Positions 25,236 through 59,191 of a stretch of DNA of 64,000 nucleotides are shown here, in pieces. Every line of letters begins with the position of its first letter. The first letter of the stretch is position 1. A program made the translations under genes and the position numbers. A model generated the notes under the pieces. The model did not search any database. It had not been told where the DNA came from and saw nothing but the letters and a program-made list of their open reading frames with translations. Origin of the DNA: an uncultured delta proteobacterium (lineage in GTDB: Bacteria > Desulfobacterota > WTBG01); the NCBI GenBank assembly GCA_963793865.1, contig CAWCBP010000011.1:96001-160000 (forward strand). The letters run 5' to 3'.

Positions 25236-26210
25236 CTACGCAACCAGCTTTAATCCGGATGCGAGCATGGCATTTTTGGTCATCTGCTTATCGAACGCGG
25301 AAAAACTGATTTTGGGCATGCGCAGTTCTCCCCCGGTCATTCCCACCAGGCCTTCCATGTATTTCCACTGCTGCAGGTTGTAGAGTCCGGTGAGCGGCAG
25401 CGTGGTGAGCACGGAGCGGATAAAAAATTTTCTCAGGGGGTCAATGGCCCAGTACAATTGCATGGCCTCATCCATTTTGCCTTCCTGCACCAGGTGGAAC
25501 AGGCGGATTTCCCGCGGGTCATCCGGCGTCTGGAACACCTGCCAGGGGGCGCACCCCGACCACTGCATGCCATATTTTCTGATGAAGGTGGGCCATGCGT
25601 CGTCAAAGGGGTAGCTGATGAGAATCTTGTCCCCGAAGAGCCGAAAGCACTCGTCGATCCATGCCCAGTCCAGGATGCCGATTTTCATTGAGACCACGTT
25701 CTCAATCTCAGCAATGCGGTTCAGGAGGGGTGCCGGGAAAATCCCGGGGAAGGGGAAGTCGTACTTGACGGAGGGGAACAATTCAATGGCCAGATTGGTT
25801 GCCCTGCAGATGGCACAGGTGTAATCGTAGATGTCTTCCGGCTTCCGGGGATGAAAGTTGGAAGGATAGCTCACCAGAAGGGAGTCGCATCCCACGGCTT
25901 CCGCGTAATGGGCCATCCCGATATTGTCCTGCAGAGAATAATAGCGAAGCTCCGTGGCTATGCCGATTTCGCCCCGGGCCTCGTCGACGCACCACTGGAT
26001 GAACAGCTTGTCTTCATCCAGCGTGGTCCCGGCGCTGGTCACCAGCGCGGTGGAGAAAAATCCGTGCTTGATCAGCTCTCTGATATCATGCCGTATCCCT
26101 GCTTCATCCAGCCCAAGCGTGTCCGGGGTAAAGGATGGAAGGATGGTGCTTTCCAGCCCCCGGTAAAAACCCCTTGCCCAGCTTTTCGCCTCCGCCTTTT
26201 TGTATTCCAT
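25236..26210 (-). CDS. DHDPS/NAL-family class I aldolase-like protein
   Basis: PSFTPD..LDEAGIRHD, AEAVGCD..LVSYP, NVVSMK Schiff-base Lys. Confidence 0.8.
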   Translation of the reverse strand: MEYKKAEAKSWARGFYRGLESTILPSFTPDTLGLDEAGIRHDIRELIKHGFFSTALVTSAGTTLDEDKLFIQWCVDEARGEIGIATELRYYSLQDNIGMAHYAEAVGCDSLLVSYPSNFHPRKPEDIYDYTCAICRATNLAIELFPSVKYDFPFPGIFPAPLLNRIAEIENVVSMKIGILDWAWIDECFRLFGDKILISYPFDDAWPTFIRKYGMQWSGCAPWQVFQTPDDPREIRLFHLVQEGKMDEAMQLYWAIDPLRKFFIRSVLTTLPLTGLYNLQQWKYMEGLVGMTGGELRMPKISFSAFDKQMTKNAMLASGLKLVA

Positions 26211-26270
26211 GGTTTCCTCCTGGTGTGGATGTGAAGACCGGCATCCGGGCACTGCAGGTAAGCGCGCGTC

Positions 26271-28370
26271 TTAGGTGAGGCCCAGTTTTTTCATCTTCCG
26301 GTAGAGAGAGGTTCTCCCGATTTTCAGATACTGCGCCGCCAGCGCCCTGTTGTCGCCCGCCTGCTGAAGCGCCTTGGAGATGATTTCTCTTTCAGCGGAT
26401 TCGCTGGTGCGGGAGAGGGTCTGCCTGAGACCTTCAGCCTTAAGCCGCCCCTCTTTTTTGTGCCGGGGGGATGCGGGGTTGATTACTTCAGGCGGCAGAT
26501 CAGTCGGCCTGATGATGTTGCCTTCGCAGAGAATGCATGCCCGCTCGATGATGTTTTCCAGCTCCCGGACATTACCCGGATATGAGTAGCCGAGGAGTAT
26601 TTTCATGGCCTCACGCGAAAGCGAGATGACTTCGGAGCCGGCCTTGCATTTGTTTAAGAAGAAATTGATCAGGGGGGGTATGTCCTCAACCCGCTCTCGC
26701 AGCGGAGGAATATTGATGGTCACCACATTGATGCGATAGTAGAGGTCCTCGCGAAACCGTTTTTTCCGGGTTTCCTCAAACAGGTCCTTATGGGTGGCGG
26801 TGATGATCCGGACATCTATTTTTACCGAGCGGTTATCCCCCACGCGCCTGATTTCATGGTCCTGGATTGTCCGCAGCAGCTTCACCTGCATATCAAGGGG
26901 GAGATCGCCGATTTCGTCCAGAAAGATGACGCCGCAATGAGCTTCTTCGAAAAGGCCGTTTTTGTCGCGGGATGCCCCGGTAAAAGCCCCCTTCACGTGC
27001 CCGAACAGCTCGCTCTCAAGCAGGTCATGGGGGATGGCGCCGCAGTTCAGTGCCACAAAGGGACCTTTGCTCCGGTAGCTTTGATGATAGAGGGCATGGG
27101 CGATAAGCTCCTTTCCCGTGCCGCTTTCGCCCTGGATGAGCACCGTGCAGTCGTTGTCGGCAACCTTGGCGATGAGCCTGAAAATGTTCTGCATTGCCAG
27201 GCTCTTGCCGACGATGGTGTCGGGTCCGTACTGCCCGGTGAGCTCCTTTTTAAGCAGGGTGATCTTTTCATCCTTCTCCATCAGCTCCTGCTCCAGGCGG
27301 GCTTTTTCGGACATGTCATGGATGTTGCGCACAAAACCGGTGATCTCGCCGGTGCCGTCCTTAAGCAGTGAGATATTCACCTCGGTGGGGATCAAAAAAC
27401 CGTCCTTGTTATTGAAATACTGCCTGAAGCCGTATACCTTTCCCGCCCCGAAAAGATTGTCGATCATTTCCGCCATGGTAACAAAGTACCCCTCGTCAAT
27501 GGTAACCGAACCTCCTATGGTGAGCGGATAGGTGCCGATATCCGGAGAAACGATGGTTACCGGCTGATTGAACAGCTCCTTCTCAGTGTAGCCCACCAGT
27601 TTTTTGAATGACTCATTGGAGGTCATAATCAGTCCCGCGGGGCTGGTGACCAGGATGGCATCGATGGCATTGCCCATCACATTGTTGATGTTCACCTCGG
27701 TCTGCAGCAGATCGGCCACCAGGTCGCGGCGCATCTCGGGCGTGAGCTCGATGGTGCTCTGCTGCAAGAGCCCCTGCTTTATATGATTCATGATCTCCTT
27801 CAGGGCGTACGAGCAGTCTACGAGCTGCTGGATGTTGAGAATAAGGTAGAGAAAGCCGATGGTTTCGCCGGCCCAGTTTACCAGGCTGAGCCGGTGCTGC
27901 AGTACGGAGATGACCTCTCCGTCGCTGGTTATGTAGGCATCTTCATGAATCCCATGGTAATGTTTTTGCTTTACCTCATAAATAAGGTAGGCGGCCCTGT
28001 TGCTCCGCTGGTCTTCAGCTTTTTTAGGCCGCTCAATCCAGAGCTTGCCCTTATACGCGCCGATGACTTCGTCTGGTGCGTAGCGGAGGGCGTCAAGCAG
28101 GTTTTGTGAGGCGTCGAGCATGATGTCCTGTGTGTCACAGACAATGCACCAGATTTCCGGGTGATCGATGACGGCGGACAATTCATCGGCGCTTTGCTCG
28201 CGGGAGAGCCGCAGAAAGGATGACAGTTGATCCGGCGTCCCGGCCGGGATGCCCCCGGGGTATATTTCTATCGCCCGTCGAATCAGGTCCTTCAAAAGAT
28301 CAAGACGGCCGGCCTCTTCGTTTTTCCACTCCCGGAGGCGGTCGAATTCCTTCTGATAGTCAGTGGCCAT
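26271..28370 (-). CDS. PAS-domain sigma54-dependent transcriptional activator
   Basis: GESGTGKE, ESELFGHVKGAFTGA, FLDEIGD, PGNVREL, Fis-type HTH. Confidence 0.95.
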   Translation of the reverse strand: MATDYQKEFDRLREWKNEEAGRLDLLKDLIRRAIEIYPGGIPAGTPDQLSSFLRLSREQSADELSAVIDHPEIWCIVCDTQDIMLDASQNLLDALRYAPDEVIGAYKGKLWIERPKKAEDQRSNRAAYLIYEVKQKHYHGIHEDAYITSDGEVISVLQHRLSLVNWAGETIGFLYLILNIQQLVDCSYALKEIMNHIKQGLLQQSTIELTPEMRRDLVADLLQTEVNINNVMGNAIDAILVTSPAGLIMTSNESFKKLVGYTEKELFNQPVTIVSPDIGTYPLTIGGSVTIDEGYFVTMAEMIDNLFGAGKVYGFRQYFNNKDGFLIPTEVNISLLKDGTGEITGFVRNIHDMSEKARLEQELMEKDEKITLLKKELTGQYGPDTIVGKSLAMQNIFRLIAKVADNDCTVLIQGESGTGKELIAHALYHQSYRSKGPFVALNCGAIPHDLLESELFGHVKGAFTGASRDKNGLFEEAHCGVIFLDEIGDLPLDMQVKLLRTIQDHEIRRVGDNRSVKIDVRIITATHKDLFEETRKKRFREDLYYRINVVTINIPPLRERVEDIPPLINFFLNKCKAGSEVISLSREAMKILLGYSYPGNVRELENIIERACILCEGNIIRPTDLPPEVINPASPRHKKEGRLKAEGLRQTLSRTSESAEREIISKALQQAGDNRALAAQYLKIGRTSLYRKMKKLGLT

Positions 28371-28702
28371 GACACCCGGTCTCGTGCTAAAAGTTGTCAG
28401 ATTAATCTTATATGCAGGATCAGAAGACTTTCAGGCATGGGATGCTTGATTATTGCACTCTATTAAGTTCTATTCTTACATAGCATATGCGCTGCGGGCA
28501 GGCAAGTAAAATGTTGCTTCCGTGGAACGTTTCTTTTGTGGTACACACAGAAATAAACCAATAATTATTAATTACTTAAATTGTTATAATTGTTTTTTCA
28601 AGGTGCAAAAATGGTACATAATTCCATGAGCATGTGGCAGCGCGCATATGCCCTATAATAAAATAGTTAATCAAAACAAATGCTTGCGATATTATTTTTG
28701 TG

Positions 28703-28718
28703 TGGCACGCATCTTGAA
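28703..28718 (+). promoter_or_regulatory. Sigma54 (-24/-12) promoter
   Basis: TGGCACG-catc-TTGAA about 50 bp upstream of mmsA, divergent from the activator gene. Confidence 0.7.
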
Positions 28719-28769: not shown

Positions 28770-30371
28770 ATGAGCGTAGATAAGTCAAAGAATGGATTGG
28801 ATCAGGAAACTGCTACGACAAATAAGGCAAAAAAGAGGTATCTTGCTGTCGTCAAATCAAACTTCCGCAAGCTCAACTACTGCGTCAATAATGAGTGGAA
28901 GGAATCAAAAACCACAAAATACATGCCGGTCACCGACTCGAGCACCGGCGAAGCCATTGCCGAGGCCCCCTGCTGTACAAAGGAAGAGGTGCTGGAAGCA
29001 GTCAAGGCGGCCAAGGATGCATATCCGGGATGGAGAAGCACGCCGGTTCAGCAGCGCATTGAGGTGATGTTCAAATTGAAGGCGCTGATGGACGAGCACC
29101 TTGACGCACTTACCCTGAGTGTTTCGAAAGAGCTGGGCAAAAACCTTGATGAGGCCCGCGGCGACGTTATCAAGGCCATCGAGGTGATGGAATGCGCCTG
29201 CGCGACACCCTACCTCATGCAGGGTGATTCACTGATGAACGTTTCAAGAGGCCATGATACGGTGCTTTTCCGTGAACCTCTGGGTGTTTTTGCCGGCATC
29301 GTTCCCTTCAACTTCCCGGCGATGATTCCCTGGGGCTGGATGATACCTTTCTGCATCAGCTGCGGCAACACCTTCGTTCTGAAATCCGCCAGCCTGACAC
29401 CGATTACCTCAATGAGAATTCTCGAACTTGCCATTGAAGCCGGGCTTCCCAAGGGGGTGGTAAACCTGGTTACCTGCAGCAGAAATGAGGCAGACCTTCT
29501 GCTTGAGCACCCGGATGTCCGGGGCATTTCCTTCGTCGGCTCCACCTCGGTCGGCAAACACATTTACTCGACCGCGGCCTTAAATGGCAAAAGAGTGCAG
29601 TGCCTGACAGAGGCCAAGAATCACGCCCTGGTTTTGCGGGACGCGGAGCTTGATGTCGCAGCCCAGAGAATCACCAACTCCACCTTCGGGTGCGCCGGGA
29701 TGCGATGCATGGCGCTGCCGGTTCTGGTGGTTGAAGAATGTGTGGCCGATGAATTTGTATCCTACTTGAAGCGCTACGCAGAAACACTGAAAATCGGGTG
29801 TGCATACGACCCCGCGACGCAGCTGGGACCGGTGGTTTCCGCTGAGCACAAGAAATTTGTTTTAGACTGGATCAACACGGCTGTGAAGGAGGGCGCAAAG
29901 CTGCTTCTTGACGGCAGGAATAAAGTTGTTCCGGGATACGAAAAGGGCTTTTTCATAGGACCCACCATTTTTGATCATGTCACCGAAGAGATGACCTGCG
30001 GACAGCAGGAGGTGTTCGGCCCGGTTACGTTTGTTAAACGGGTGCAAGATTTTGAGGAAGGCATTACCCTGATGAACAGGAACCAGTTTGCAAACGGCTC
30101 GGCCATCTTTACCGAGAGCGGACACTATGCGCGCGAGTTTACCTTCAGGACTGACGGCGGCATGGTGGGAGTGAATGTGGGCATACCGGTTCCGGTTTCC
30201 TACTTCCCCTTCTGCGGGCACAAGAATTCATTTTTCGGTGATCTGCACTGCATGGGAAGGGACGGTGTGCAGTTCTACACCGAGTCCAAAACGATCACCT
30301 ACCGCTGGCTGAAAGGTACAGTCAAGGCGAAGAAGGTGAGCACCTGGGAAGGAACCATCGCCCGCGAATAA
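28770..30371 (+). CDS. mmsA: CoA-acylating (methyl)malonate-semialdehyde dehydrogenase
   Basis: PFNFPAMIP, SFVGST, AKNH, GCAGMRCMA, EVFGP, VGVNVGIPVP. Confidence 0.9.
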   Translation: MSVDKSKNGLDQETATTNKAKKRYLAVVKSNFRKLNYCVNNEWKESKTTKYMPVTDSSTGEAIAEAPCCTKEEVLEAVKAAKDAYPGWRSTPVQQRIEVMFKLKALMDEHLDALTLSVSKELGKNLDEARGDVIKAIEVMECACATPYLMQGDSLMNVSRGHDTVLFREPLGVFAGIVPFNFPAMIPWGWMIPFCISCGNTFVLKSASLTPITSMRILELAIEAGLPKGVVNLVTCSRNEADLLLEHPDVRGISFVGSTSVGKHIYSTAALNGKRVQCLTEAKNHALVLRDAELDVAAQRITNSTFGCAGMRCMALPVLVVEECVADEFVSYLKRYAETLKIGCAYDPATQLGPVVSAEHKKFVLDWINTAVKEGAKLLLDGRNKVVPGYEKGFFIGPTIFDHVTEEMTCGQQEVFGPVTFVKRVQDFEEGITLMNRNQFANGSAIFTESGHYAREFTFRTDGGMVGVNVGIPVPVSYFPFCGHKNSFFGDLHCMGRDGVQFYTESKTITYRWLKGTVKAKKVSTWEGTIARE

Positions 30372-30495: not shown

Positions 30496-32019
30496 TTATT
30501 CCGAGAGAGGGAAGGACACGCCGGGTGAGAGAAAACCGGTGGGGTCAATCACCTGCTTGATTACCTTTGCCATGGCAAAGTGGGCCGGGCATTCGGTCCA
30601 GGTCCTCTTGTCCCGGCCGACGCCGAGTGGCGCCATGCCGATCTCCTGCATCAGGCCGTCAAACTTGGCTTTAATGGCCCCGATGTAGGGGAGAAAATCC
30701 CTGCGTGCGTAATCCACCAGAAAGATGACCTCGCCCGCCGCGTTGGCATGGCCTCCCATGGACAGGTAGGTCTGGCCGCAGCTGGCGTAAAGTCGGAGTA
30801 TGGGATGGGGGTGGTTGAGAAACACCGGGTTTTCCCTGCAGATCTGCTGATAGGTTTTCATTCCCCGGTCCATGTAATCTTCAAGTTTTTCCAGAGAGTC
30901 GAACACACCACCCGAAACGAAAATGCCGCCGGAGTCGGACTGCCCGTTAAAGGTGCCGCAAATCTTCGGACTGTTGCACTGCTGCCAGCCTGCGGCGTTT
31001 TCCTCGTGCCCGTCAAGAATGGCCACCATCCACGGGGGCATCACCGTGCCTCCTCCTTCCTCGAGAATGCGGATGCATGCTTTCTGCTCAAACGCGACCT
31101 TGGCCGGAGTGCCCCTGAAAGACATGCCGATGAGATTAATGTCCTGGGTGGCCTTGACAAAATGGGCGCCTTCCTGCCAGTGCTTGCTTGAATACAGCGC
31201 ATGTGTCCAGCATCCCGGCCCCATGACCGTGGCACCGCAGGCATAATCCTGCATCATCACGTTATACATGGCCTTCACCGCGCCGCTCAGGGTGGGAAAG
31301 GTAACCCAGAGGGACCTGACTTCCTGAGGGGTGGGGAAAAAGCGGAATTCCATTTGGCTCACGATGCCGTATCCGCCATTGGAGAAAAAGGGCAGATAGG
31401 TGAGCGCCGGTCCCGGGCCGTGGGGCCAGCCCGGGCTTTTGGGGTGGGCCATGGAACCGGTTCGTATTATTTCACCGTTTGCCAGTACCAGTTCCATGCC
31501 GGCAACGCAGTTAATGCCCATGCCGTCCTGATAACCCGCCATCTTGTTCTGGCCGGTAAACACCTGGTAGGGTACAAACAGGGATGTTCCCGGACTGCCG
31601 CCAAAGTAGGGCCTGTATCCAAGATCCATTTCCCGTATCAGCTGGCTTACCTGCAGGCCGGTAGCACCCGGTTCCGCCCTGACCACCATCCGTTCCCTGT
31701 CAACTGCAACCTTCTGCATGCGGCGGAAATCGAGGACAATGCCGGCATTGGGCTTGCCGGGTATGGATCCCACCAGCAGAACCGTACCGCCTCCCACCGG
31801 GTAAATGGGCAGATCATGCTTGCGGGCAACGTTGATGATGCCCTGCAGGTGCTTGGCCGACCCGGGATAGACGACAGCCACGGGGAGGTTTTCAGGATAG
31901 AGATTGCCCTGACCAAAATGGGTCATCACATCGGAGGCATGGTAATACCTGCTCAGGGCATCCGTGCGCACCCACTCTGAACCAACAACCTTTTTCAGTT
32001 TACTGATTACGTTCTTCAT
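30496..32019 (-). CDS. FAD-linked oxidase (GlcD/VAO family), type B paralog
   Basis: PVAVVYP, PVGGGT, ELVLANGEIIRTGS, GPGP, IDPTGFLSPG. Confidence 0.85.
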   Translation of the reverse strand: MKNVISKLKKVVGSEWVRTDALSRYYHASDVMTHFGQGNLYPENLPVAVVYPGSAKHLQGIINVARKHDLPIYPVGGGTVLLVGSIPGKPNAGIVLDFRRMQKVAVDRERMVVRAEPGATGLQVSQLIREMDLGYRPYFGGSPGTSLFVPYQVFTGQNKMAGYQDGMGINCVAGMELVLANGEIIRTGSMAHPKSPGWPHGPGPALTYLPFFSNGGYGIVSQMEFRFFPTPQEVRSLWVTFPTLSGAVKAMYNVMMQDYACGATVMGPGCWTHALYSSKHWQEGAHFVKATQDINLIGMSFRGTPAKVAFEQKACIRILEEGGGTVMPPWMVAILDGHEENAAGWQQCNSPKICGTFNGQSDSGGIFVSGGVFDSLEKLEDYMDRGMKTYQQICRENPVFLNHPHPILRLYASCGQTYLSMGGHANAAGEVIFLVDYARRDFLPYIGAIKAKFDGLMQEIGMAPLGVGRDKRTWTECPAHFAMAKVIKQVIDPTGFLSPGVSFPLSE

Positions 32020-33164
32020 CGAGCCACCGCCTTTCTCTTGTAACCGAATGCCTCTGCCATGAGGGATGTTAAATCGACCACGCTGAAGCCTTTGGGCTTG
32101 CTCGCTCCCAGGTTGATGTTGCAGAAGGGGCAGGCGGTAACCATGACCCGGGCACCTGTTGCCTGTGCCTCCTGCCAGCGGTTTGACGCGTATCGTTTGG
32201 CGAGCGAAGCATCCGTAAACAGCACACCCCCTCCTGCGCCGCAGCACAGCGAGTTGTGCCCGGAACGCCACATCTCTTTGAGGGTAAGTCCCAGACCGGC
32301 GATGACCTGGCGCGGGGCCATGTATTCCTTCGCGTAGCGTCCCAGGTGGCAGGGATCCTGGTAGGTAACCGGGGGCATTTTTAATTTTTTATGGGCCTTC
32401 TTTGCGATCATCTGGCTGTAGAGCCGGCTGATGGGGATGAATTCAACCCGGCTGTTGCTGCGTCTGAGCAGCACTGACAGGCTCTCCGGGTTGTAGCAGA
32501 TGACCTGCCGTATCCCGAATTTTTCCAGGCGGGTGTCAATGTCCTCCATGCACTCTTCAAGCAGCTCGCTGCAGCCGGCACTGAGAAGTGCCGTGTCAAC
32601 AGGGGGAAGGGGATCGTTAATGAAGCACCCGATCCTCCTCCCGCTCTTCTGCAGTAAAAAGCCTATTTCCTGCAGCTTGGGGGTGTTAGCCATAATTGTT
32701 TTGTCGGCAAAGAGGATGGTTTCTATCCTGCTGTCTTCCGCGGGGTCGGCAATGCCGTATGCTTTCAGGACATCGAGGTTATGGCCCGTGGCGGTGCTCA
32801 GGGATTGTGCCATCCTGATGAGGCTTTGCGGCTTCAACTCATCCGGTACCATCCTGCGCAGCTCTTCCATGATGGTGATGGCCGGGGTGTGACGGTAACC
32901 GCGGCTGCACAGATCTTCGCAATAACCGCAGAGCGTGCATGAATAGAGGAAGTTGGCGAGCTCCTTGTCCCAGTTCAGGGCGCCCAGGGCAAGACCGCGG
33001 GCGATATACATCAATCCCGCCGGTTCGTAGGCACCGAGAAGCGTCATTCCGGAAGGGCATTGCAGTGAGAATGACGTGTCCGGAACTGTGTCCTGAGAAA
33101 CCCCCCGGCAACTCCCGCATCGGTTGCAAGAAAGCGCTTTGTCCAGTAATTCTTCCCTGGTCAC
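32016..33164 (-). CDS. Fe-S-binding CCG-domain subunit (GlcF/HdrD-like)
   Basis: CNRCGSC..CP, CTLCGYCEDLC, YQDPCHLGR, CCGAGGG, TACPFC. Confidence 0.88.
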   Translation of the reverse strand: MTREELLDKALSCNRCGSCRGVSQDTVPDTSFSLQCPSGMTLLGAYEPAGLMYIARGLALGALNWDKELANFLYSCTLCGYCEDLCSRGYRHTPAITIMEELRRMVPDELKPQSLIRMAQSLSTATGHNLDVLKAYGIADPAEDSRIETILFADKTIMANTPKLQEIGFLLQKSGRRIGCFINDPLPPVDTALLSAGCSELLEECMEDIDTRLEKFGIRQVICYNPESLSVLLRRSNSRVEFIPISRLYSQMIAKKAHKKLKMPPVTYQDPCHLGRYAKEYMAPRQVIAGLGLTLKEMWRSGHNSLCCGAGGGVLFTDASLAKRYASNRWQEAQATGARVMVTACPFCNINLGASKPKGFSVVDLTSLMAEAFGYKRKAVAR

Positions 33165-34462: not shown

Positions 34463-34851
34463 CTGTTCGCACCTCCTTCCATGCATTCCTGAAGCATGAC
34501 CAAAAAGCTGACCACCAGCGAGCCATTGTGATGGTCTTTGCCCATGCGTATGTTAGCCTGGTCATTGTTCATCGCCACCAGAAGCGGAGGGCAGGTCCCG
34601 AGGAAAAGGCGGTTGAAGGCATCCTCAGTCATGGCCCATGAACAGAAGGGTTTTTTTGCCTCCCGCTGCGCCACGCTGATCTCTGATCCGTCCCAGCTAA
34701 CCACCAGCGGCGTGTTATCACCCACCGTGAGACAGAGCAGGTCTCCGCGCACGGTTGCCGGTAAGCCCGCGGCGTTGAGGCGCCTCAGCCGTTCTTCAAG
34801 CGCGGGGTCGGTTCGAAGTGTTGCTTCCCATTTTTCTCTGTTGATATTCAT
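34459..34851 (-). CDS. Small hypothetical protein, possibly SCP2-like lipid-binding fold
   Basis: Overlaps the downstream start (translational coupling); beta/helix pattern ..KPFCSWAMTEDAFNRLFLG..IRMG resembles SCP2. Confidence 0.55.
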   Translation of the reverse strand: MNINREKWEATLRTDPALEERLRRLNAAGLPATVRGDLLCLTVGDNTPLVVSWDGSEISVAQREAKKPFCSWAMTEDAFNRLFLGTCPPLLVAMNNDQANIRMGKDHHNGSLVVSFLVMLQECMEGGANR

Positions 34852-35915: not shown

Positions 35916-35978
35916 AGCAGTCTCCTTTCGTAACGTAAAAGGCTGGACAGCGTTCAGGCCGTCCAGCCGAATCGGTGA

Positions 35979-37670: not shown

Positions 37671-37730
37671 ACGTCCTCCTTTGCGGCACGGTGGCGGACG
37701 GGGTCCGCCAGAGGCCAATAGATGCGGTTG

Positions 37731-46582: not shown

Positions 46583-46645
46583 GCGGTAGGTATAAAAAAT
46601 ATTGTTACTAACGATTGCCGTTGTTTATCACAGGTTTCTCTCAGG

Positions 46646-47642: not shown

Positions 47643-47726
47643 GCTTAATCACCGGGTTTTTTATTGCGTATCAATGTTGCTTGATTCATGAATGCTCAGG
47701 AATGTACCCCAATATTTTATATGCAG

Positions 47727-47762
47727 AGAGGGTGCTTAACACTTTTTTGCTAAGCACCCTCT
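47727..47762 (-). terminator. Stem-loop downstream of the DUF1329 gene
   Basis: agagggtgctta ... taagcaccctct 12-bp stem. Confidence 0.55.
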
Positions 47763-47786
47763 TGGCATGTGAGTTGTCAGACGTGA

Positions 47787-49040: not shown

Positions 49041-49061
49041 GGTTACCTCCCTTCCTCGCCG

Positions 49062-50579: not shown

Positions 50580-50696
50580 TGTTCCCTCCTTTCAATGACA
50601 AGAAACCGGTTTGAGGAGTTTCAAAGCCTCGAACTTTCCCTATTATCTCAGCAATTCAAAAGTACTCCTGCTGGAATAAAAGTAAAGAGTTTTATT

Positions 50697-53094
50697 TTAA
50701 TTGATGACTTCATGTCGATTGCGGTAAAGTGCTTTCCTCTTAGTTTTCTCATCCCCGCTGAGAAATCGTGGTTTGAAGAGCAGCACCAGCACCGGAACCA
50801 TGAATATCGCCCCCAGGCAATTGAGAAAGAGGATGACTGCCAGCATCAGTCCCATCTGCGCCTGGAACTTGAAGGCGGACAGATCCAGACCAATAGCCCG
50901 GCAACCAGTGTGCCCGCGATGACATAATCGATTTTCCATAGGTCTGAATGGTGCGGGTCATGATCGTGTTAAGCGAGCTGGATGGATCACGTTTTTTTTC
51001 CTCGGTCCATCCGGGCGATGCAGTAAATCCCGTAGTCCACCCCCATGCCGATTCCTGCGGCCGACACCGGCAGGGTTGAAACCGAAAGGCCGATACTGCG
51101 TTATGGCCATATAGGCAAACGCCATGAAGTTGGAAAGCGCCAGGGGAAGGGTCAGGACAAGGCCTGCCGTGATGGACATGAAGTTAAGCGCGCAGAACAG
51201 GAATACGCCAAGAGGGCAATAGATAAGGGTCTGCACCTGCTTGGAAGCGACCATTTCATTGATGGCGGCCTCGGTACCGATAACCCCGCCTGCAAGACTG
51301 TATTGAAAGCCCTCCGGCAAATTGGAATATTCCTTGATATACTGCTTGGCGGTGGCGATGGCGCGATCGATGGTGGGGCCGGTTTTGTCCTTGTAGTATA
51401 CAACCACATTAGTCTGCATGATTTTGGGATCGATAAACTTGTTCATGTCCCCCGGCTCAAATGCGAAAAGCAGTCCTACCAGATTGGCGCTGGCAGCGGC
51501 GGGGTCATCCGCCAGGCCGATCCACTTGGGATCATCTTCGTGATATTTCTGGGGCATAATCATGAGCGGGGCGACGATGTTCTGAAAACCGGCAGCCCCG
51601 GAGTTTTTCATCATGTACTCGGAAAAGTTTTTAACATCCTCCATCACCCGGGGATTGGTCAGGGATCGCTGCTTATCTCCTTTAACCACAACGAAAAGAG
51701 GATTGATCAACGGCAGGTTCTGGTTGATGCGCACGCTGTCCTGATTATAGCGGGAACTGGGATAGAGCAGGTTTGAGCCGACCTGGGCATCGCCGATAAT
51801 CAGCTTTCCAGACCAGTAGTAGGAAAATCCAAGTATGATCAGTATGATGATGGATACGGTGTAAAGCCCCTTCTTCGAAATGAGCCAGGGGCCCAGCCAG
51901 TCGGCAAAGCGGTTGGCAAATCCCTCGCGCCGCTCATCGATGAGCCGTTCCCGTTCCATCTGCTCAACGAATTTGGGCGATATGGGGACATAGCTTAAAA
52001 GAACCGGCGTCAGAATGAGACCGACGATGACGGTTATGATGGACCAGAAGGCGCCGGCGATGGCGATGTTTTTTAGAACCGGTATGGGGGCAAGGGCGAC
52101 AATGGCAATGCCGAAGGCATCAGTGATAATGCTGGTCAGTCCGGCCATGAACATGTTTTCGATGATCACGCGTATGCCGGCCAGGTTGTCCTTGGTCTTG
52201 GCATATTCTTCGTAATAGCGGTTGTACAGCTGATGCGAATGGCGGAAGGCCATGAGCGAGATAAGAAAGGGCATGACAAAAATGAGCGGGTCGAGATTGT
52301 AGCGCATGATGCCCATGAATCCCAGTCCCCAGATGCCGGAAACGATACCGGCGAGGGGTACAATGATCGTGGCCCAGATGGAACGGTAGGCGAAAAAGAG
52401 CAGGATGGGAGATTACAATTGCCGTGCCCAGCATGATCAGGTTGATCATTCTGATCATGCTCGCCACCACCCCCAGGTGCATGGGATGCCCGACGATGGA
52501 AACGGTGGTGTTGCTGTCTTCGGTCTTCTTGCGCATCTCCTCAAGCTGTTTATACACAGCAGTATAATTCAAGTCTCCTTCAAAGAAATCCGCAAAGATG
52601 AGTGATTTCTTTGAGTCCAGGGAAACGTAGAAACCGTAGTAGGCCTCATTGGAGTAAATGGCATTCTTCAGGGTTTCCATTCCCTTGTCGTCTTTGGGAA
52701 CCTCGGGGTACATCAGGGCCACCGCCTCCAGGCCCCAGGAGGTAATCTGGGTGTTTTTAAGCTTGCGTGAGGCAATGGAGACTATCTTATAGCGGTCAAT
52801 ACCCGGCAGGCCTTCCAGCTCGTTGGTGAGGTAGCGGATCTTTTCCAGCGTCTCCCGGTTGAAGATGGTGCCGTCCTTGACGGACACCATAATGACCAGA
52901 AAGTTGGCCCCGCCGAAGACCTCGCGAAATTCATTGTGGATTTTTACGTAGGGGTGAGTCTGGGGAAGCAGGTCATTAAAGTTGGTGGCGACGGTGAGAT
53001 GCCGGCACTGGTAGCCGAAGTAGACGGTAATGACGGTGATGACGACCAGTACCAGCAACCGTCTGTTAATAATAAAATCCGCGAGTTTCTTCAT
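50697..53094 (-). CDS. MMPL/RND family transporter; several apparent frameshifts
   Basis: DLLPQTHP..FGGAN, TSIITDAFG, PVLLS, FKFQAQMG..LNCLGAIFMVPVL across ORFs 52120, 50958 and 50697. Confidence 0.85.
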
Positions 53095-53122
53095 AATAAC
53101 GCGCCAAACATATTAGGCTTTT

Positions 53123-53176
53123 CGGTAGGAGCGCCTTCAGGCGCGATGCATTCGCGGCTTGAAGCCGCTCCTACCG
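53123..53176. repeat. GTAG-family REP inverted doublet
   Basis: cggtaggagcgccttcaggcgcga tgcat tcgcggcttgaagccgctcctaccg. Confidence 0.8.
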
Positions 53177-53210
53177 GTTGTAATGATTGCTAAGAGAACG
53201 ATTCTCAGAG

Positions 53211-53663
53211 TTACTTTACAATTATTTTTCCCTTAATATCCGGTGGCTCAGCAGGTATGGCTGCAAGTTTGCGCGGTTCCCGTTTTACCACGTATTCAAA
53301 CTCTCCCGCTTCAGTAAAGCACAGGCTTGCAACGGTACCCCGGAAAATCTTTTCCGATACATAGGTGCCACGATTATCAACCACAAAGCGCACCGGGCTC
53401 CCGCAGGCCAGGGTGACCTGTTTATCGGTGAACTCAATCTCCGCGAGGCTCTTGGATTCGTTGATCCAGATCACGGTGGTGCCGGGCTGGACGGTGAGCT
53501 GCTGCGGCTCAACCCCCCCCTTCTCGTAGAGACGAACGATTTTGTGCTGCAATTCCGGTGTTGCTTCCGTATCCACCCCATATGCCGTTTGCACGGAGAT
53601 AAAACTGATGATGCAGAAGAGCGCACACAGAGCCGTCACCATGTTCCCATTTGCTTTTAGCAT
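53211..53663 (-). CDS. Exported cupredoxin-like protein lacking type-1 copper ligands
   Basis: Signal peptide; EPQQLTVQPGTTVIWIN, FTEAGEFEY, terminal KGKIIVK. Confidence 0.65.
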   Translation of the reverse strand: MLKANGNMVTALCALFCIISFISVQTAYGVDTEATPELQHKIVRLYEKGGVEPQQLTVQPGTTVIWINESKSLAEIEFTDKQVTLACGSPVRFVVDNRGTYVSEKIFRGTVASLCFTEAGEFEYVVKREPRKLAAIPAEPPDIKGKIIVK

Positions 53664-53744
53664 AACACAACCCCCTTTCTTGTCTTTGACTGAAAGAATA
53701 CTGACCGGTTAAGGCGTTAAGAAAAATTGATTGTCATCTGTCTG

Positions 53745-54806
53745 CTATTGTTCAATTAAAAGGGGAATGCCGGATAACATCTTCCAGCTCCCCCCGCCGT
53801 CTTCGGTTTTGATGATTGTGCCTCGGGAACCGACTGCCCAGCCGGTTGTCGCGTCGGAAAAATCCATGTCCCGCAGCCAAAACTTGGTGTTGGTGGCATC
53901 CTCAGGCCGCTCCCAGGTCAGGCCACCGTCCTTAGAATGGATGTAAACCCCTTTCTGTCCGACCACCCACACTGTGCTGCTGTGTGCGGCGATTTTGTAA
54001 AAAGTCAGTCTTTCCTGTTCCAGGGGGTTCTTGACTTTCTTCCAGGTGACGCCGCCGTCGTTCGTGGCAATGGTGACGCTGTCCATGCCTGATGCCCAGC
54101 CATGGAGCGTATCAGTGAAGCAGATGCTGTACAGGGAAGGGGTCGGGGTTTCCCATTGCGTCTCATCCACCTTGCAGATTATATCCTGGCACATTTGCAG
54201 CTCCCAGGTGGAGCCTGAGTTCTGCGTGTGATAAATCAGCCCGTACTCACCCGCGACCCATGCGTTCTGCCGGTCTACACAAAAGATGTCATTATAAATT
54301 CTGTCCTCACCCGATCCCTGGGAAACCCAATTTGCGCCGCCGTCGGCAGTGTGCAGGATGGTGCCGAATTCTCCCACCGCCCAGCCGCAGGTTCATCGGC
54401 AAAGTCAATCCCGAAAAGCTGGCGGCTGGTGCCGCTTGACTGCGGTTGCCAGGTTCTTCCCGCCGTCCTTTGTATGCAGGATGGTCCCTCGGGCACCCGC
54501 TATCCAGCCGGTCTGAGGATTGACAAACGAGACATCATAGAGAGGAGCAGTTACGCCGCCATTCTGGATTTCCCACTTTGCACCCCCGCCGCAGCTGTGC
54601 ACGATTATGGCGTTGAATCCGACGACCCAGGCATTGTTGGAATCAGGGGCGCTGACGGCGAAAAGATTTTCACCGGTAACCATGGGGAAGGGAGCTTGTT
54701 GAGCGACGGGCTGTTTTTCAGGCCCGCATCCGGCGAAGAGGATGACAAGGATGGTTATAATTGAATGGAATGAAAGCAGGTTGTCTTTTAAGCGCCAGGG
54801 ATTCAC
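53745..54806 (-). CDS. YCF48/BNR-repeat lipoprotein; apparent frameshifts near 54390-54440
   Basis: LFAGC lipobox; repeated GWxxG..G.I.hT.DGG.tW. Confidence 0.85.
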
Positions 54807-54946
54807 AGTGAAGTCCGCAGCGGATAGTGTATGCGTAGATTAAAAATTTTTAATACTGCATTCATCTAAGCATATTAATTCGCGTGGTGCAAGTTTTTTT
54901 TAAATTATTTTAGTCTTTAAACTCATTTAATGACCGCAGTCAGCAC

Positions 54947-54985
54947 AAAAGCCGATTTGCATGAATCGCTGAGCAAACCGGCTTT
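54947..54985 (-). terminator. Putative terminator after the FDBR-like gene
   Basis: aaagccgatttgc / gcaaaccggcttt stem; T-rich on the minus strand. Confidence 0.55.
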
Positions 54986-55022
54986 CTGACGCTTTACCTC
55001 TTTGATGGTAAGAATGAACCCC

Positions 55023-55832
55023 CTAGTCCAGGCCGAACATCACCGTGCGGACGTATTCCTTCTGCTTCTCGGGCCCGAGGAGGGTTTTGAAGACATTTAC
55101 CGCGGGACCGCCCTTGGCAATGAGGGTGTCGACATACCATTCCATGCCCGCCTTGACCTTTGCGCTCTCTTCGGCGCCCAGCGGCTGCGCATTCTTCGCC
55201 ATATCGAGATAGGTGTTGAGATATGAGGTGTAGACATCAAAGAGCAGATCGTCGCGGGTGCGGTCCGCGCGGCTGTGGATGCTCACATCCCGCACCGCTT
55301 CTTCCGCCCACTCCATGGATACTTCCATTTTTTCCAGGGTGCCCTCCGCCGGCTTCAGGGAGCGCATCTTCGCGTAGCCCGCTTCAAGGTTGTCGTCCCT
55401 GATGCCTGCCGGGTCAATAAGCTCGATGACAAAGACCCTTTTGCCTCCCATGAAAATGATATCCACCGAGAGCATGGGCAGATTATAATTATAGTTGGGG
55501 AGGATGAGCAGGGTATACATCTTCATGAAGATCATGAGCGAGGCGTCGAGGTTGTTGATGCGCTTGAACTTATCAGTCTGCCAGGCCTCAATGGCGAATC
55601 TGAGCAGCTTCAGCCCCTTCCAGGGATGAACGATCCGGTACTCCTCCCTGATGGGATAGGGGGCGAGCGGAAGGGCCTGTGCCAGGACATCCTCGGTGTA
55701 GCGGTCATACTTCTCGTACATACGCTGCCCCTCGCTGCGCGCCTTGATGATGAGAGGGGCGGCGACGAGCGCGGCCAGGATGACGATTCCCGCCAGGGTG
55801 TAAGCGAGGTATTTTATTATTTTAAGCGCCAT
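55023..55832 (-). CDS. Ferredoxin-dependent bilin reductase-like protein with N-terminal TM anchor
   Basis: WQTDKFKRI, ILPNYNYNLPMLSVDII, YLNTYLDM, GPAVNVFKTLLGPEKQKEYVRTVMFG parallel the PebA/PebB/HY2 core and C-terminus. Confidence 0.72.
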   Translation of the reverse strand: MALKIIKYLAYTLAGIVILAALVAAPLIIKARSEGQRMYEKYDRYTEDVLAQALPLAPYPIREEYRIVHPWKGLKLLRFAIEAWQTDKFKRINNLDASLMIFMKMYTLLILPNYNYNLPMLSVDIIFMGGKRVFVIELIDPAGIRDDNLEAGYAKMRSLKPAEGTLEKMEVSMEWAEEAVRDVSIHSRADRTRDDLLFDVYTSYLNTYLDMAKNAQPLGAEESAKVKAGMEWYVDTLIAKGGPAVNVFKTLLGPEKQKEYVRTVMFGLD

Positions 55833-55880
55833 GGTTGTTCCCCATGTGGTAAAGGCACGGTTACCCGGCTGTTGCAGGGA

Positions 55881-57011
55881 TCATTGCATGCGGGCAATGA
55901 TTTCCTGAATGGTCTGCCGCTGCTCTCCCTCGATCTTTCTTCCTTCCGCCCAGAGCAGTTCCTCCGCCTTGGCAACATCCGCCTCCGCGCCTTTTCTGGC
56001 GTCGGGCTTTTCGTAGGAGCGGAATGATATGTGCACGTTCCCGGGGTCCTCGGTGAGCACCGCGGCGACCACATGAAGGGTATGCTCCGTGCCGTCATAT
56101 GATTTCACCGCATGATAATAAATATTAAAGGGGGATTTTTTCTGTTCCTGGAGGTTGATGCCCTGCTGCTGCGCCCAGGTCTCGAGGAGCGAAATTGCAT
56201 TTTCCATGGTGCTCCTGATGCGTGAGCGGGTATAAAAGATCCGGTCCGTGCTGTGGTGTTCATTGTAGGGCTTGGGCTTGAATTTTGCTTTTGAAGGGTC
56301 GGCCAGCGATCCCGGCTGGAGGGATGTCCAGTATCCCCGGTACTGTTCCACGTCCTCCCGCATCGGGAGGCCAAGAATAGTGGTCCTGATTTCGTTGGCA
56401 AAGACCTCCACGCGCTCCACCATGAGCGATTCCCAGATATCCAGCCCCTGCCAGGGAGCGCCTTCCTTTGCCAGCTTGCCCAGGAGCCAGGTAAATAAGG
56501 TATCCTTGGTGTTCATCTTAGTCAGCACCTGACGGCCGCCGAATCCCCCGATCACCACCGGCTTAACCGCGGGGTATTTTTCCATGATGTCGGAAAGGTA
56601 ATTCCGCCCGGCGATGAGGTGGGGCGTGCCTCCGGGGGTCTTGAGAATCTGGGTCTCGTCGTTGTCACCGCAGGTAAGAAAATAGGCCACCTCTTTTCTG
56701 GAAAGCTCGTCCTGGTTCGCCTCCACAAATTTGTAGATTTCCGGCGCGGGTTTTTCATTCCTGATCAAACTGCCGATGATCACGTAGTCGTAGGGCTTGA
56801 TGGTGATAATCTGGCTGAGCGGCTTCACATCCAGCAGGTTTTCGGGACCGATAAGCTGCTTGATCCAGTAGGCAACCTCGACGGTTGAACCGTAGATGGA
56901 GCTGTATACCAGCAGTCCCTTCTTGCCTTCGGCAGGTGCTGCCGGGGGGGTGATGAGTGCTGCCAGCATGAGCAGCACAACGATGTAAAAGGTTCTGGTC
57001 TTGAGTTTCAT
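55881..57011 (-). CDS. Exported flavodoxin_5 (HemG-like) domain protein with unknown C-terminal domain
   Basis: Signal peptide; LLVYSSIYGSTVEVA, YDYVIIGS, VAYFLTC, GFGG. Confidence 0.75.
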   Translation of the reverse strand: MKLKTRTFYIVVLLMLAALITPPAAPAEGKKGLLVYSSIYGSTVEVAYWIKQLIGPENLLDVKPLSQIITIKPYDYVIIGSLIRNEKPAPEIYKFVEANQDELSRKEVAYFLTCGDNDETQILKTPGGTPHLIAGRNYLSDIMEKYPAVKPVVIGGFGGRQVLTKMNTKDTLFTWLLGKLAKEGAPWQGLDIWESLMVERVEVFANEIRTTILGLPMREDVEQYRGYWTSLQPGSLADPSKAKFKPKPYNEHHSTDRIFYTRSRIRSTMENAISLLETWAQQQGINLQEQKKSPFNIYYHAVKSYDGTEHTLHVVAAVLTEDPGNVHISFRSYEKPDARKGAEADVAKAEELLWAEGRKIEGEQRQTIQEIIARMQ

Positions 57012-57053: not shown

Positions 57054-58419
57054 TCAGATGGTAAAGTTGCAGTGAAAGCCCGACCTGATGGTGTTCCGCA
57101 GGACCACGTGCGCGGGGATAGGAGCTGAATTCCTCGATTTTTTTCAGCAGCTCCGGCCTTTGCTTCTTGAATGGTGGGGATGACTTTGGCCATGGCAACT
57201 GGCCCATGAGCGCCGGAATCTCGTAGGGGTCCAGCACGGTGGGAAGCGTCTCGTTGATGATGCTGAAGAGATAGTCAATTTCGCCGTCCGAACAGAGCAT
57301 GGGCATGTACAGGTTCTTGAGGAACACATTGTAATCCAGCTTGTCGAGGTAGGCGGATTTCCACCACGTGAGATAGGGCGCCATGCCCGCCGCGTTGTAC
57401 TGCTTCTCCTGCATGGCAAAGACCACGGTATTCCCGGCCTTCCAGCCGCTCATCACCGCGCCGGTCATCTCGGCTTCCTGGCACCAGCCCGCATCACCCA
57501 CAAAGAGCACATTGTCCTTATAGGGGTAAAACAGGGGGGCATACATGTTGCCGGTGCAGCCGCACCGGCGAATCTTGCGGGCCTTTTTGAACCAGGGGGC
57601 AAACCTGCTCCGCTGCGTCAATTCATCAAAGACGCCTTCATGGTCCGCCTGCATGTTAACATTTGATATCATCACCAGCCACACGTCTTCCCCTTCATGG
57701 TCCCAGGCGCGCGGACAGATGAACCCCATCATGGGCGGATCACCGCTTTTGAACAGCGGCTGATGGAGCGCGTAGGGATGTTCCAGGGTGAGGTTGGTCA
57801 TCTCGTACCCGATGGAGGTGACCGTGGCGTAAAGCCGGCGGCCCCTGTTCATGCCCATGCTGCGGGCCATCCGTGACTGTCGCCCGTCGGCGGCGATGAC
57901 GAACATGCCTTTGAACGCCCGGCCTCCGGCCGTGTAGACCACGACCCCTTGGCCGTCCTTTGCCGCACGGATGACGTTCTGCCCGGTGAACAGCTTAACC
58001 CCGAGGCGCCTGCATTCTTCGGTCAAACCGGCCAGGAGGCGGCCCTTGTGATATACCGCGCTGGCCCGGCCCGCCCGACCTTTTTGGACATTGGCCGTAT
58101 AGTTGCCGAAGGTGATGCTTTCCCCGCCGGGTGAGTAAATTTCCCAGGCGAAAAAATCCTTGGTGGGGCCGTCGTATTTCAGGCTGAACCCGTGATGGGG
58201 AAAGCCCAGCACGCCGCTTTGTTCGTTGTGGGTAAGACGTTCCCCCATGTAGTTCCCGGTGAGGGTGACCAGCATCATGCCGCACATCCTCAGGATGTCC
58301 GAGGGGCTGTCCTTCCGCTCGAGCAGGGCAACCGAAAGCCCGTTTTCCGCCGCCATCTTGGCCGCGGTCAGTCCGGCAGGTCCGGCACCGACTACGACGA
58401 GATCATAGGTCTTGCTCAT
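57054..58419 (-). CDS. GGR/FixC-family FAD-dependent oxidoreductase; frameshifts near the 3' end
   Basis: YDLVVVGAGPAG, VIAADG, LFVGDAG; reconstructed end ..LRNTIRSGFHCNFTI* at 57054. Confidence 0.85.
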
Positions 58420-58456
58420 AGTGTCTCTTCCTCCTGTAAAATGAATAAAAGAACCT

Positions 58457-59086
58457 TTACGCGGCCGGCCCCTCCGGTTGTATCATGCCTTCCAATACGA
58501 GATCAAGCCGCTGAAAAAGATCCTCAGATGTCATGCTATAGCTTTTTTTAATCAGGCAGTCAATGATAAAAAGGGTGAAAATCCCTTCCAGCATGGTTGC
58601 CAGCTTGAGCGCCGGCACATCGCTTCGCATCTGGCCCTGCTGCTGCCCCTTGTCTATGATCAGGGAGAGGGACTGCCTGAAATCATCAAAAAAGAGGCCG
58701 TTGTACTCTTTGTTGTTGAAGCTTGATAAATTCTTAAGCAGTATGGCCCGGGTAATTTCCTGGTTCTGGGCGGCAATGCGGGCGGTGGCGGCAAATACCT
58801 TGTTGATCTTTGTTTTCATCGGTGCGTCGGTGGAGACAATTTCCTGGCACTTTTTCCTCAGGAAGGGAATCTTTTTCTTGAAAATCTCGACCAGCACATC
58901 CTCCTTGCGGGGGAAGTAATTGAAGAAGGTGCTCTGGGCGATGTCGATCTTCTCGGTAATATCTTCGACGGAGGTATTCTCAAACCCCTTCTCATTGAAG
59001 AGCTTTTGTGCCACCGTGAAGATGGCATCCCGCGTGGCCTGCTTCTTCCGTTCTCTCCGCCTGACCGGTGTGCGCTTGCCGAACAT
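58457..59086 (-). CDS. TetR/AcrR family transcriptional regulator
   Basis: RRERKKQATRDAI..LFNEKGFENTSVEDI..STFFNYFPRKE. Confidence 0.93.
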   Translation of the reverse strand: MFGKRTPVRRRERKKQATRDAIFTVAQKLFNEKGFENTSVEDITEKIDIAQSTFFNYFPRKEDVLVEIFKKKIPFLRKKCQEIVSTDAPMKTKINKVFAATARIAAQNQEITRAILLKNLSSFNNKEYNGLFFDDFRQSLSLIIDKGQQQGQMRSDVPALKLATMLEGIFTLFIIDCLIKKSYSMTSEDLFQRLDLVLEGMIQPEGPAA

Positions 59087-59152
59087 TGGTTTCTTTTCAG
59101 GTGATGTGGTTATGACGTGGGAATAAACTGCCAATAAGCTGCTCAAACATTT

Positions 59153-59191
59153 ATAAGTGCACTCATATATCGTAACCGGAAGTGATGTCAA
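59153..59191 (-). promoter_or_regulatory. Palindrome ATAAGTGCACTCAT (putative TetR autoregulatory operator) with upstream TTGACA
   Basis: 13/14 identity to 39264-39277; tgtcaa at 59186-59191. Confidence 0.7.

Follow-up and report, generated by a model that had tools for sequence, protein, structure and literature searches.

The 64,000-nucleotide window analysed here (G000 C11:96001-160000) comes from an uncultured member of the Desulfobacterota whose genome, G000 (3.85 Mb), is 98.6% complete. It carries a 34 kb gene cluster that combines four folds known from tetrapyrrole chemistry with predicted uptake genes, a corrinoid methyltransferase cassette and FAD dehydrogenases. The cluster comprises 26 genes between positions 25236 and 59086, 25 of them on the minus strand; the gene for a (methyl)malonate-semialdehyde dehydrogenase (MMSDH) alone is on the plus strand. 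A preliminary description, made from the sequence alone, had listed these genes and read them as one island for the import, reduction, demethylation and ring opening of tetrapyrroles, ending in acyl-CoA. The named genes and their orientation are confirmed, but the 34 kb is a mosaic of four separately conserved modules, A to D, and not a single island. Our best reading, to which we give even chances, is that these modules take up scavenged tetrapyrroles derived from chlorophyll or haem and process them anaerobically. That they handle tetrapyrroles in some way is probable. Each part comes from a known family, but no described system is of this kind.

A predicted membrane-anchored FDBR-fold protein

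The four folds on which the preliminary description relied (Fe_bilin_red, Coprogen_oxidas, Flavodoxin_5 and URO-D) all score above their Pfam cut-offs. The Fe_bilin_red match belongs to a protein with the fold of ferredoxin-dependent bilin reductases (FDBRs) and a predicted N-terminal membrane anchor (55023-55832; here and below, genes of the window lie on the minus strand unless marked otherwise). It scores 77 bits against PF05996 (cut-off 31), and its AlphaFold model, made from a 93-row alignment, has a pLDDT of 92.5. The nearest structure in a Foldseek search is PebB with dihydrobiliverdin (6qx6, E 9e-15). VIA-align superimposes the model on PcyA with a Z score of 26.1 (r.m.s. deviation 2.6, 232 aligned residues), on PebB with 25.1, on red chlorophyll catabolite reductase (RCCR) with about 21 and on coproporphyrinogen oxidase (CPO) with 13-18. 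FDBR, RCCR and CPO structures are its only matches (Z 12.8-26.1), the next row having a Z score of 4.8. The protein reaches none of the named equivalog models (PebA, PebB, PcyA; best score 47.9 bits versus 327) and does not match PF06405, the RCCR family.

A hydrophobic N-terminal helix is found in this protein alone among 16 full-length FDBR-type paralogues; it is kept in 93/93 homologues, and the anchored orthologues form one group in a paralogue tree. Two acidic active-site positions are occupied by Glu137 and Gly242, which are invariant in all 93 aligned homologues; both Asp residues are retained in 11 of the remaining 15 paralogues. We take the acidic pair of PebB-type enzymes to be catalytic.

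The neighbouring gene (55881-57011) encodes a long flavodoxin of the HemG type (Flavodoxin_5, 65.5 bits; cut-off 27) with a predicted signal peptide. Most orthologues likewise have a signal-peptide-like or hydrophobic N-terminus. The protein does not reach the HemG equivalog model (31 bits; cut-off 142), and its extra C-terminal domain of about 170 amino acids is of no known family and gave no usable match in the ESM Atlas. Because the FDBR-fold protein has an N-terminal helix and the flavodoxin beside it a signal-peptide-like N-terminus, the two may carry out a binding or redox step in the periplasm.

Module A is completed by the TetR-family repressor at its head (58457-59086; Pfam TetR_N) and the second of two geranylgeranyl reductase (GGR)-family flavoproteins, GGR2 (57058-58419; a frameshift near the 3' end makes the end approximate). 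The repressor gene lies 5' of GGR2 in five related genomes (G003, G008, G004, G013 and G029). The intact G003 copy of GGR2 scores 78.7 bits against TIGR02032, under the cut-off of 158.8, and a PDB sequence search with GGR2 at 1e-8 returned no match.

Orthologues of the anchored FDBR-fold protein are present in 27 of the 42 genomes of the class. Their neighbours were counted in 20 fetched loci (G000 excluded, there are 40 matches). The flavodoxin gene is no more than 400 bp away in 15 of the 20; 11 loci have GGR2 at a distance of up to 2.5 kb, and 11 have uptake genes at up to 9 kb, which upholds the tie between uptake and FDBR genes claimed in the preliminary description. The genomes compared in this work are kin, and counts across them are not independent. 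Module A is conserved across four families.

A corrinoid methyltransferase cassette next to FDBR- and HemF-fold genes

All four components of a corrinoid demethylase are adjacent in module B. They are a corrinoid protein (45806-46450; B12-binding domains, MtgC/MtbC-like, under the cut-offs), a URO-D/MtaA-fold protein that is the likely substrate-specific methyltransferase, MT1 (44479-45804, with the frame continuing to 44392; PF01208, 72 bits, cut-off 23.9), an MtrH/MtgA-like methylcorrinoid:tetrahydrofolate methyltransferase, MT2 (43560-44462; PF02007), and a RACo corrinoid activator (41755-43550; RACo domains), which is split by frameshifts here and intact at 597 amino acids in G003. The MtrH/MtgA-like protein scores 390 bits against the MtgA model (cut-off 550) and 280 against the MtrH family (287).

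The model of the URO-D-fold protein (pLDDT 94.3) has its best match in MtaA (4ay7, Z 26.5), with uroporphyrinogen decarboxylase (UROD) at Z 24.8; the protein is under the MtaA equivalog cut-off. Among the neighbours of 80 metagenomic homologues there is a corrinoid protein gene in 65 cases, an MtrH gene in 32 and a RACo gene in 18. With the two Z scores nearly equal, it is this gene context that leads us to assign the URO-D-fold protein to the corrinoid methyltransferases. The methyl-transfer step proposed earlier is retained as one of the corrinoid type, with the URO-D gene corrected to a member of a four-gene cassette. The histidine of the C-terminal G-H-G motif of HemE aligns to Ile or Pro in this protein; the missing histidine, the absence of a TIGR01464 match and the corrinoid context together rule out the decarboxylase of haem synthesis. 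A zinc-site check of 106 MT1 sequences showed invariant His, Glu and Asp residues and no invariant Cys. A PDB sequence search with the single protein found no match, and the ESM Atlas returned unnamed URO-D clusters only.

The methyltransferase is encoded in 8 of the 42 class genomes. The whole cassette with flank is available at six loci (G003, G006, G008, G013 and two in G029; the G002 contig breaks off within the cassette, and G007 was not among the loci fetched), and at all six an FDBR- or HemF-fold gene lies 93-1169 bp from it. As background, when a 5.2-kb block is placed at each of the 3256 gene starts of G000, 57 placements (1.75%) have such a gene no further than 1.5 kb away. The partners represent at least four different paralogue types. 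In the 80 metagenomic loci, FDBR/HemF-fold neighbours are seen in 5 of the 13 with at least 57% identity (most others of the 13 being short) and in no case among the 67 of lower identity (in 41 of these, 3 kb of sequence flanks the homologue on one side or both). A FastTree phylogeny of 74 rows places every locus with such a neighbour inside one 14-row group (support 99); some rows are near-copies, and the independent arrangements number four or five.

Fold radiation and a gap in haem synthesis

G000 has 14 matches to PF05996, five to PF01218 and two to RCC_reductase; after iteration there are 24 FDBR/HemF-fold loci, 17 FDBR-type and seven HemF-type. Of 41 class genomes, 31 have between 6 and 22 PF05996 matches each; the matches are in families f1, f3, f4 and f6 and not in f2 or f5. 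In a sample of the phylum, the genomes with a match (13 of 401) all belong to this class, and 0/387 outside it have one. One f6 genome (G037, 95% complete) has zero matches, unlike the other 15 of its family searched. One locus of G000 encodes a natural fusion of a 2x[4Fe-4S] ferredoxin and an FDBR/RCCR-fold domain (L005:8142-9143). The window itself contains a second, divergent FDBR-fold gene outside the 34 kb (17920-18657, plus strand; 27.3 bits, under the cut-off). An O-methyltransferase gene (16678-17676; Methyltransf_2 and dimerisation domain) lies immediately 5' of it, and the pair is flanked by housekeeping genes. The PCP_red domain (PF08369) is present in 2-11 copies per genome in the FDBR-rich families and in 0-1 in the FDBR-free ones.

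HemE exceeds its cut-off in none of 33 genomes of the FDBR-rich families (three f1 genomes among them have a HemE-like gene under the cut-off) versus seven of nine genomes of the FDBR-free f2 and f5. In G000, TIGR01464 found no match at 1e-30, and AhbA/B is missing from G000 and from all of f1, f3 and f4. HemA-L-C-D-B is present in G000, in an operon that leads straight into cobalamin genes (L178:5642-17023), and an AhbD-like gene, split and standing alone, is found at L173:8132-9225. HemB occurs in 35 of the 42 class genomes; tetrapyrrole auxotrophy is thereby ruled out, and the late haem steps alone are missing. G000 shows no recognisable way of converting uroporphyrinogen III to haem, yet it encodes 36 proteins with at least two CxxCH motifs. 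Since the HemE/Ahb route is missing while multi-CxxCH proteins are present, scavenging of haem or porphyrins would be the simplest inference.

The genome also encodes BchF (found in 11 of the 42 class genomes), a BchB/Z-like pair, BchE-like and BciB-like proteins, the Wood-Ljungdahl pathway and comABDE. The last is an archaeal-type comA-comB-comD-comE cluster (L063:8805-11505), and ComA was detected in 3/3 FDBR-rich versus 0/2 FDBR-free genomes tested. CobN/BchH (Mg-chelatase) and a type II reaction centre were not found in G000; a type I centre and BchC were not searched. Haem oxygenase PF01126 is absent from 5/5 genomes (other oxygenase folds were outside the search). No dsrA was found in the four FDBR-rich genomes tested, which rules out sulfate reducers, and the benzoyl-CoA pathway ring hydrolase (6-oxocyclohexenecarbonyl-CoA hydrolase) is absent from the four FDBR-rich genomes tested for it. 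This genome context points to tetrapyrroles more strongly than the window does by itself.

The same gap might be filled from within. Imported or self-made porphyrins could be remodelled to haem, an unknown pigment or a cofactor, with no catabolism at all. Such a role would fit the presence of HemA-L-C-D-B next to the missing HemE and AhbA/B, and HemF-like and HemG-like folds are biosynthetic elsewhere. In f6 the HemF-like orthologue is single-copy and sits within a housekeeping operon, and the 'Anaeropigmentia' preprint explains bch-like genes in a similar lineage by pigment synthesis. Against this stand the sizes of the families in G000, where 24 fold paralogues, 18 GGR, 16 VAO-type FAD dehydrogenase and 28 aldehyde:ferredoxin oxidoreductase-family loci surpass the needs of one biosynthetic route (for five of the 18 GGR loci the distance to an FDBR/HemF-fold gene is at most 3 kb, against a background of 3.6%). 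The cluster also contains an importer-type module, a repressor and a methyl-to-tetrahydrofolate cassette, and G000 lacks Mg-chelatase and a type II reaction centre. We consider a purely anabolic role quite unlikely.

The HemF-like protein and the FAD dehydrogenases

Module C is headed by a HemF/CPO-fold protein (40890-41645), which scores 37.9 bits against PF01218 (Coprogen_oxidas; cut-off 31.8) and has orthologues in 20 of the 42 class genomes. A profile of 14 orthologues retrieved only CPO structures from the PDB (best E 5e-13); this call and that of the FDBR fold both stand. The protein does not reach the NCBIfam HemF equivalog (54 bits versus 297). In the D-R-G-T motif the Arg is kept and the Asp is replaced by Asn in 14/14 orthologues (N-R-F).

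The remainder of module C consists mainly of redox proteins. GGR1 (39339-40659; TIGR02032 under the cut-off) is split by a frameshift and intact in G003, G002 and G008. It is followed by two FAD dehydrogenases of the VAO/PCMH superfamily, one of them conserved in f1 (37731-39218; FAD_binding_4) and the other (35979-37670) with 4-phenol oxidases as its best PDB matches. Then come an amidohydrolase-2 enzyme (34911-35915; PF04909), an SCP2-like lipid carrier (34459-34851; weak PF02036, conserved in f1), an FAD dehydrogenase subunit (33179-34486; FAD_binding_4), a 4Fe-4S/CCG protein that is the likely electron-transfer partner of the FAD subunits (32016-33047; CCG, Fer4_8) and a last FAD dehydrogenase subunit (30496-32019; FAD_binding_4), which in G008 is directly followed by DUF6600 and OmpA genes. 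Among the loci fetched, module C forms a block in family f1 only (G002, G003 and G008; G009 with a more distant GGR).

The 4-phenol oxidase match raises the question of whether the folds have been repurposed for other lipophiles, for example methoxylated phenols, flavonoids, alkaloids or steroids. In that case the cassette would encode an O-demethylase of the ordinary kind, with the FAD enzymes acting as hydroxylases of the alkylphenol type. The FAD enzyme ranks 4-phenol oxidases (E 9e-19 to 7e-12) above glycolate/lactate dehydrogenases (1e-9), but the match is limited to the FAD domain, and the phenolate-binding tyrosines, at what we take to be the positions of the pair, are not conserved in an alignment of 16 paralogues. 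Homologues of the methyltransferase at 44-55% identity are found in many anaerobes without FDBR neighbours, and SCP2 and DUF1302/DUF1329 are generic lipid-handling parts. G000 has an acetophenone-carboxylase-like cluster, accompanied by a second URO-D-fold (ApcE-like) gene (L174:6538-12068), and a phenylacetate-CoA-ligase-like gene; the ring hydrolase named above is missing. Solved structures show no non-tetrapyrrole member of the FDBR fold, and another lipophile would leave the BchF, BchB/Z, BciB and HemF-like genes and the loss of HemE unexplained. We regard this possibility as unlikely, though it deserves serious consideration.

Mosaic structure, uptake genes and accessory genes

To follow the modules, 40 stretches from relatives around FDBR, HemF-like and URO-D orthologues (long contigs favoured) were mapped with G000 proteins. 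The full gene order A-D was seen only in genus g1. Co-occurrence in other genomes, suggested as a check in the preliminary description, holds for the folds. In G008, modules A and C are contiguous and the HemF-like gene follows the FDBR gene after 206 bp; because of this short distance, we think it probable that module B, the uptake genes and a nitrilase-fold gene entered between these two modules within this genus.

The 34 kb has a GC content of 55.3% (genome 53.5%), its tetranucleotide distance ranks 47th of 106 windows, and no tRNA was found at the cluster. With ordinary composition and no tRNA, a horizontally acquired island is ruled out and the cluster is native to G000. Several genes that are frameshifted or otherwise altered in G000 are intact in G003, of the same genus (YCF48, MMPL, RACo, both GGRs, the stop of the URO-D gene and the end of the C-N hydrolase gene), and for that reason the frameshifts are probably assembly indels. 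A search for a conserved TetR operator or an intergenic sigma-54 site found none. In sediment RNA libraries from two studies (four of 13 listed runs, 35900-55899), contigs of relatives overlap the HemF-like, FDBR, URO-D, MtrH, MMPL and FAD genes in part; these contigs carry no level and are not counted as expression.

The uptake module lies between modules A and B. It encodes a YCF48/BNR beta-propeller (53745-54806; PF14870; split by a frameshift, intact in G003), an MMPL/RND transporter (50739-53094; split by frameshifts, weak TIGR00921, PF03176 on the intact G003 copy), a DUF1302 protein as the predicted outer-membrane component (49062-50579; PF06980) and a DUF1329/LolA-like periplasmic protein (47787-49040; PF07044, PF17131). 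These genes adjoin module A in three families with differing arrangements: the block is divergent and upstream in most such f4 and f6 loci, and downstream in this genus. A small cupredoxin-like protein with a hydrophobic N-terminus (53211-53663; weak Cupredoxin_1) appears to be accessory, its gene occurring in one of the 40 relative loci and not in those of G003. The nitrilase-fold protein (46749-47561; PF00795) was seen in this gene order only, and compared with an intact paralogue its catalytic Glu and Cys are replaced in 6/6 aligned orthologues. Of the two hydrolases in the preliminary description, one is thus degenerate, while the amidohydrolase of module C keeps its metal-ligand motifs here and in four orthologues.

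Module D consists of genus-level add-ons: the CoA-acylating MMSDH (28770-30371, plus strand; TIGR01722 over the cut-off), a PAS sigma-54 activator (26271-28370) and a DHDPS-family aldolase (25236-26210; PF00701). All three are absent at this position in G008. The aldolase is found in 2 of the 42 class genomes, with close homologues scattered among other Desulfobacterales and Proteobacteria. A TusA-DsrE fusion gene (24534-25136) edges the genus-level insertion. With these genes so unevenly distributed and the C-N hydrolase degenerate, the single 34-kb pathway to acyl-CoA proposed earlier finds no support, and neither does its ring-opening step, for which no enzyme was identified.

Such a patchwork could mean that the modules are functionally unrelated and were joined merely by rearrangement in one genus. 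Module B (8/42 genomes) and the aldolase are sparsely distributed, and the modules are separate in other families. Yet A and C are contiguous in G008, uptake genes stand beside module A in three families in differing arrangements, and module B re-pairs with different FDBR/HemF-fold genes. A chance assembly is, in our view, very improbable.

Proposed mechanism

The folds, the linkages, the corrinoid cassette, the genome-wide FDBR/HemF radiation and the absences are observations; the following steps are what we infer from them. DUF1302, DUF1329, YCF48 and MMPL would move a lipophilic pigment through the envelope. The anchored FDBR-fold protein, facing the periplasm, would bind the pigment and reduce it or pass it on, with the exported flavodoxin in place of ferredoxin. 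In the cytoplasm, the GGR-type flavoproteins and the HemF-fold protein might alter double bonds or side chains. The FAD dehydrogenase pairs, working together with the CCG protein, might oxidise the reduced pigment at its bridges or side chains, the amidohydrolase hydrolysing or decarboxylating the products; these two steps are the weakest. MT1, the corrinoid protein, MtgA and RACo would remove a methyl group and deliver it via tetrahydrofolate to the Wood-Ljungdahl pathway. Because chlorophyll derivatives bear a methyl ester and biliverdin and haem do not, the group is most plausibly a methyl ester of the chlorophyll type. The organism would obtain carbon and electrons in this way and also salvage haem.

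Several observations weigh against the processing of scavenged tetrapyrroles. With Glu and Gly at its acidic positions, the anchored FDBR-fold protein may be no reductase, and the HemF-like protein lacks the Asp of CPO. In five of seven fetched f6 loci the last gene of a housekeeping operon is the HemF-like orthologue, a GGR 68% identical to GGR1 ends a futalosine menaquinone operon (L068:949-6220), and AhbA/B is kept in 8 of 17 f6 genomes. The methyltransferase family is widespread, with no FDBR-fold link outside the clade described above; the nearest structure to MT1 is a coenzyme M (CoM) methyltransferase, and G000 encodes CoM synthesis. For one FAD enzyme, 4-phenol oxidases are the nearest solved relatives (by the FAD domain alone). 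Finally, the fitness data for DUF1302/DUF1329 concern fatty esters, not pigments (10.1101/2020.07.04.188060).

Taken further, the modules may be the entry route (import, a periplasmic flavodoxin-driven FDBR-fold enzyme, B12-dependent removal of the chlorophyll methyl ester into the Wood-Ljungdahl pathway) of a class-level lineage of anaerobes that lives on chlorophyll- and haem-derived pigments, has given up late haem synthesis and has a radiation of FDBR, RCCR and HemF folds that functions without oxygen. We offer this wider proposal tentatively and think it rather more probably wrong than right.

The cluster supplies testable genes and organisms for the consumption of chlorophyll and haem in anoxic sediments, a process largely unassigned at the gene level. 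Our literature search found no gene-level pathway for it, and neither this cluster nor an FDBR radiation among Desulfobacterota was described in what the search covered, which left out most subscription journals. If true, the tetrapyrrole reading would give a catabolic meaning to the 'orphan' bacteriochlorophyll genes of non-phototrophs, which the literature consulted in part here treats as pigment synthesis, relics or unexplained.

Comparison with known systems

According to PMC13193486, the families of this fold known to bind tetrapyrroles are FDBR, RCCR and CPO. The anchored protein shares the fold of characterised FDBRs (PebB/HY2, PebA/PebS, PcyA and pre-PcyA; 6qx6, 2g18, 2x9o) with Z scores of 24-26 and r.m.s. 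deviations of 2.6-3.0 over about 230 residues, and exceeds the PF05996 cut-off. It differs from them in its membrane anchor, the Glu/Gly at the acidic positions, the flavodoxin neighbour and a genome without recognisable haem oxygenase; known FDBRs work downstream of an O2-dependent oxygenase (PMC10151467). No BBAG globin/V4R cluster is among the annotated neighbours here. RCCR (2zxk, 3aga) shares the fold and has a catabolic role, on a chlorophyll-derived bilin; it differs in acting after an O2-dependent oxygenase and in the PF06405 domain, which the anchored protein lacks. PMC10151467 has Schekmanbacteria sequences in its RCCR outgroup and suggests that oxygenic photosynthesis came before FDBR, RCCR and CPOX arose; PMC13193486 mentions two new uncharacterised clades. 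Sequences of the present lineage may already be in the trees of PMC10151467 (outgroup) or PMC13193486. None of the three FDBR lineages listed in PMC13193486 is a membrane-anchored, probably periplasmic protein with a flavodoxin gene next to it.

The HemF-like protein matches the HemF profile (PF01218) over its whole length and shares the G-x-V-F-E-K and P-x-N-P motifs and conserved arginines. It differs in the Asn of the D-R-G-T motif and its low equivalog score, has no HemE to supply its substrate and exists as seven paralogues. HemG is a single cytoplasmic flavodoxin domain, whereas the flavodoxin here has a predicted signal peptide and an extra domain. With the four-component corrinoid demethylases (MtaA 4ay7, MtgA/MtgC), module B shares the MtaA fold and the adjacency of all four components, but its MT1 belongs to an uncharacterised subfamily, in a clade tied to FDBR/HemF-fold genes.

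BilR/BilV and ChuW/HutW have in common with the proposed system the oxygen-free bacterial conversion of tetrapyrroles; their folds are different (old yellow enzyme and radical SAM). Genome-level profile and motif searches confirmed the earlier statement that BilR, HutW/ChuW and haem oxygenase are not recognisable here. Old yellow enzymes of the BilR/BilV type are marked by an HGDR or AHAH motif (PMC10769871, 10.64898/2026.06.10.731317); the cluster contains no old yellow enzyme, and the two elsewhere in G000 have neither motif. At L018:8416-11156 an FDBR-fold gene is followed by an old yellow enzyme gene (long BilR model 382, cut-off 750; BaiCD 378, cut-off 825; no BilR/BilV motif). TIGR04107 (ChuW/HutW) exceeded 400 bits in 0/5 genomes (best 219). 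BilR operons contain a flavodoxin-like gene too (PMC10769871).

A described lineage with similar gene content is Candidatus 'Anaeropigmentia' (10.1101/2021.03.22.436540). In the main text of that preprint it is a member of the Desulfobacterota with archaeal-type CoM genes, the Wood-Ljungdahl pathway, crtI and bchE, bciB, bchF, DPOR-like and chlP-like genes, and no reaction centre; this main text never uses the word 'bilin' and reads the bch-like genes as pigment synthesis or relics. G000 matches it in gene content. What the present analysis adds is the anatomy of the modules, the demethylase linkage and the gap in haem synthesis.

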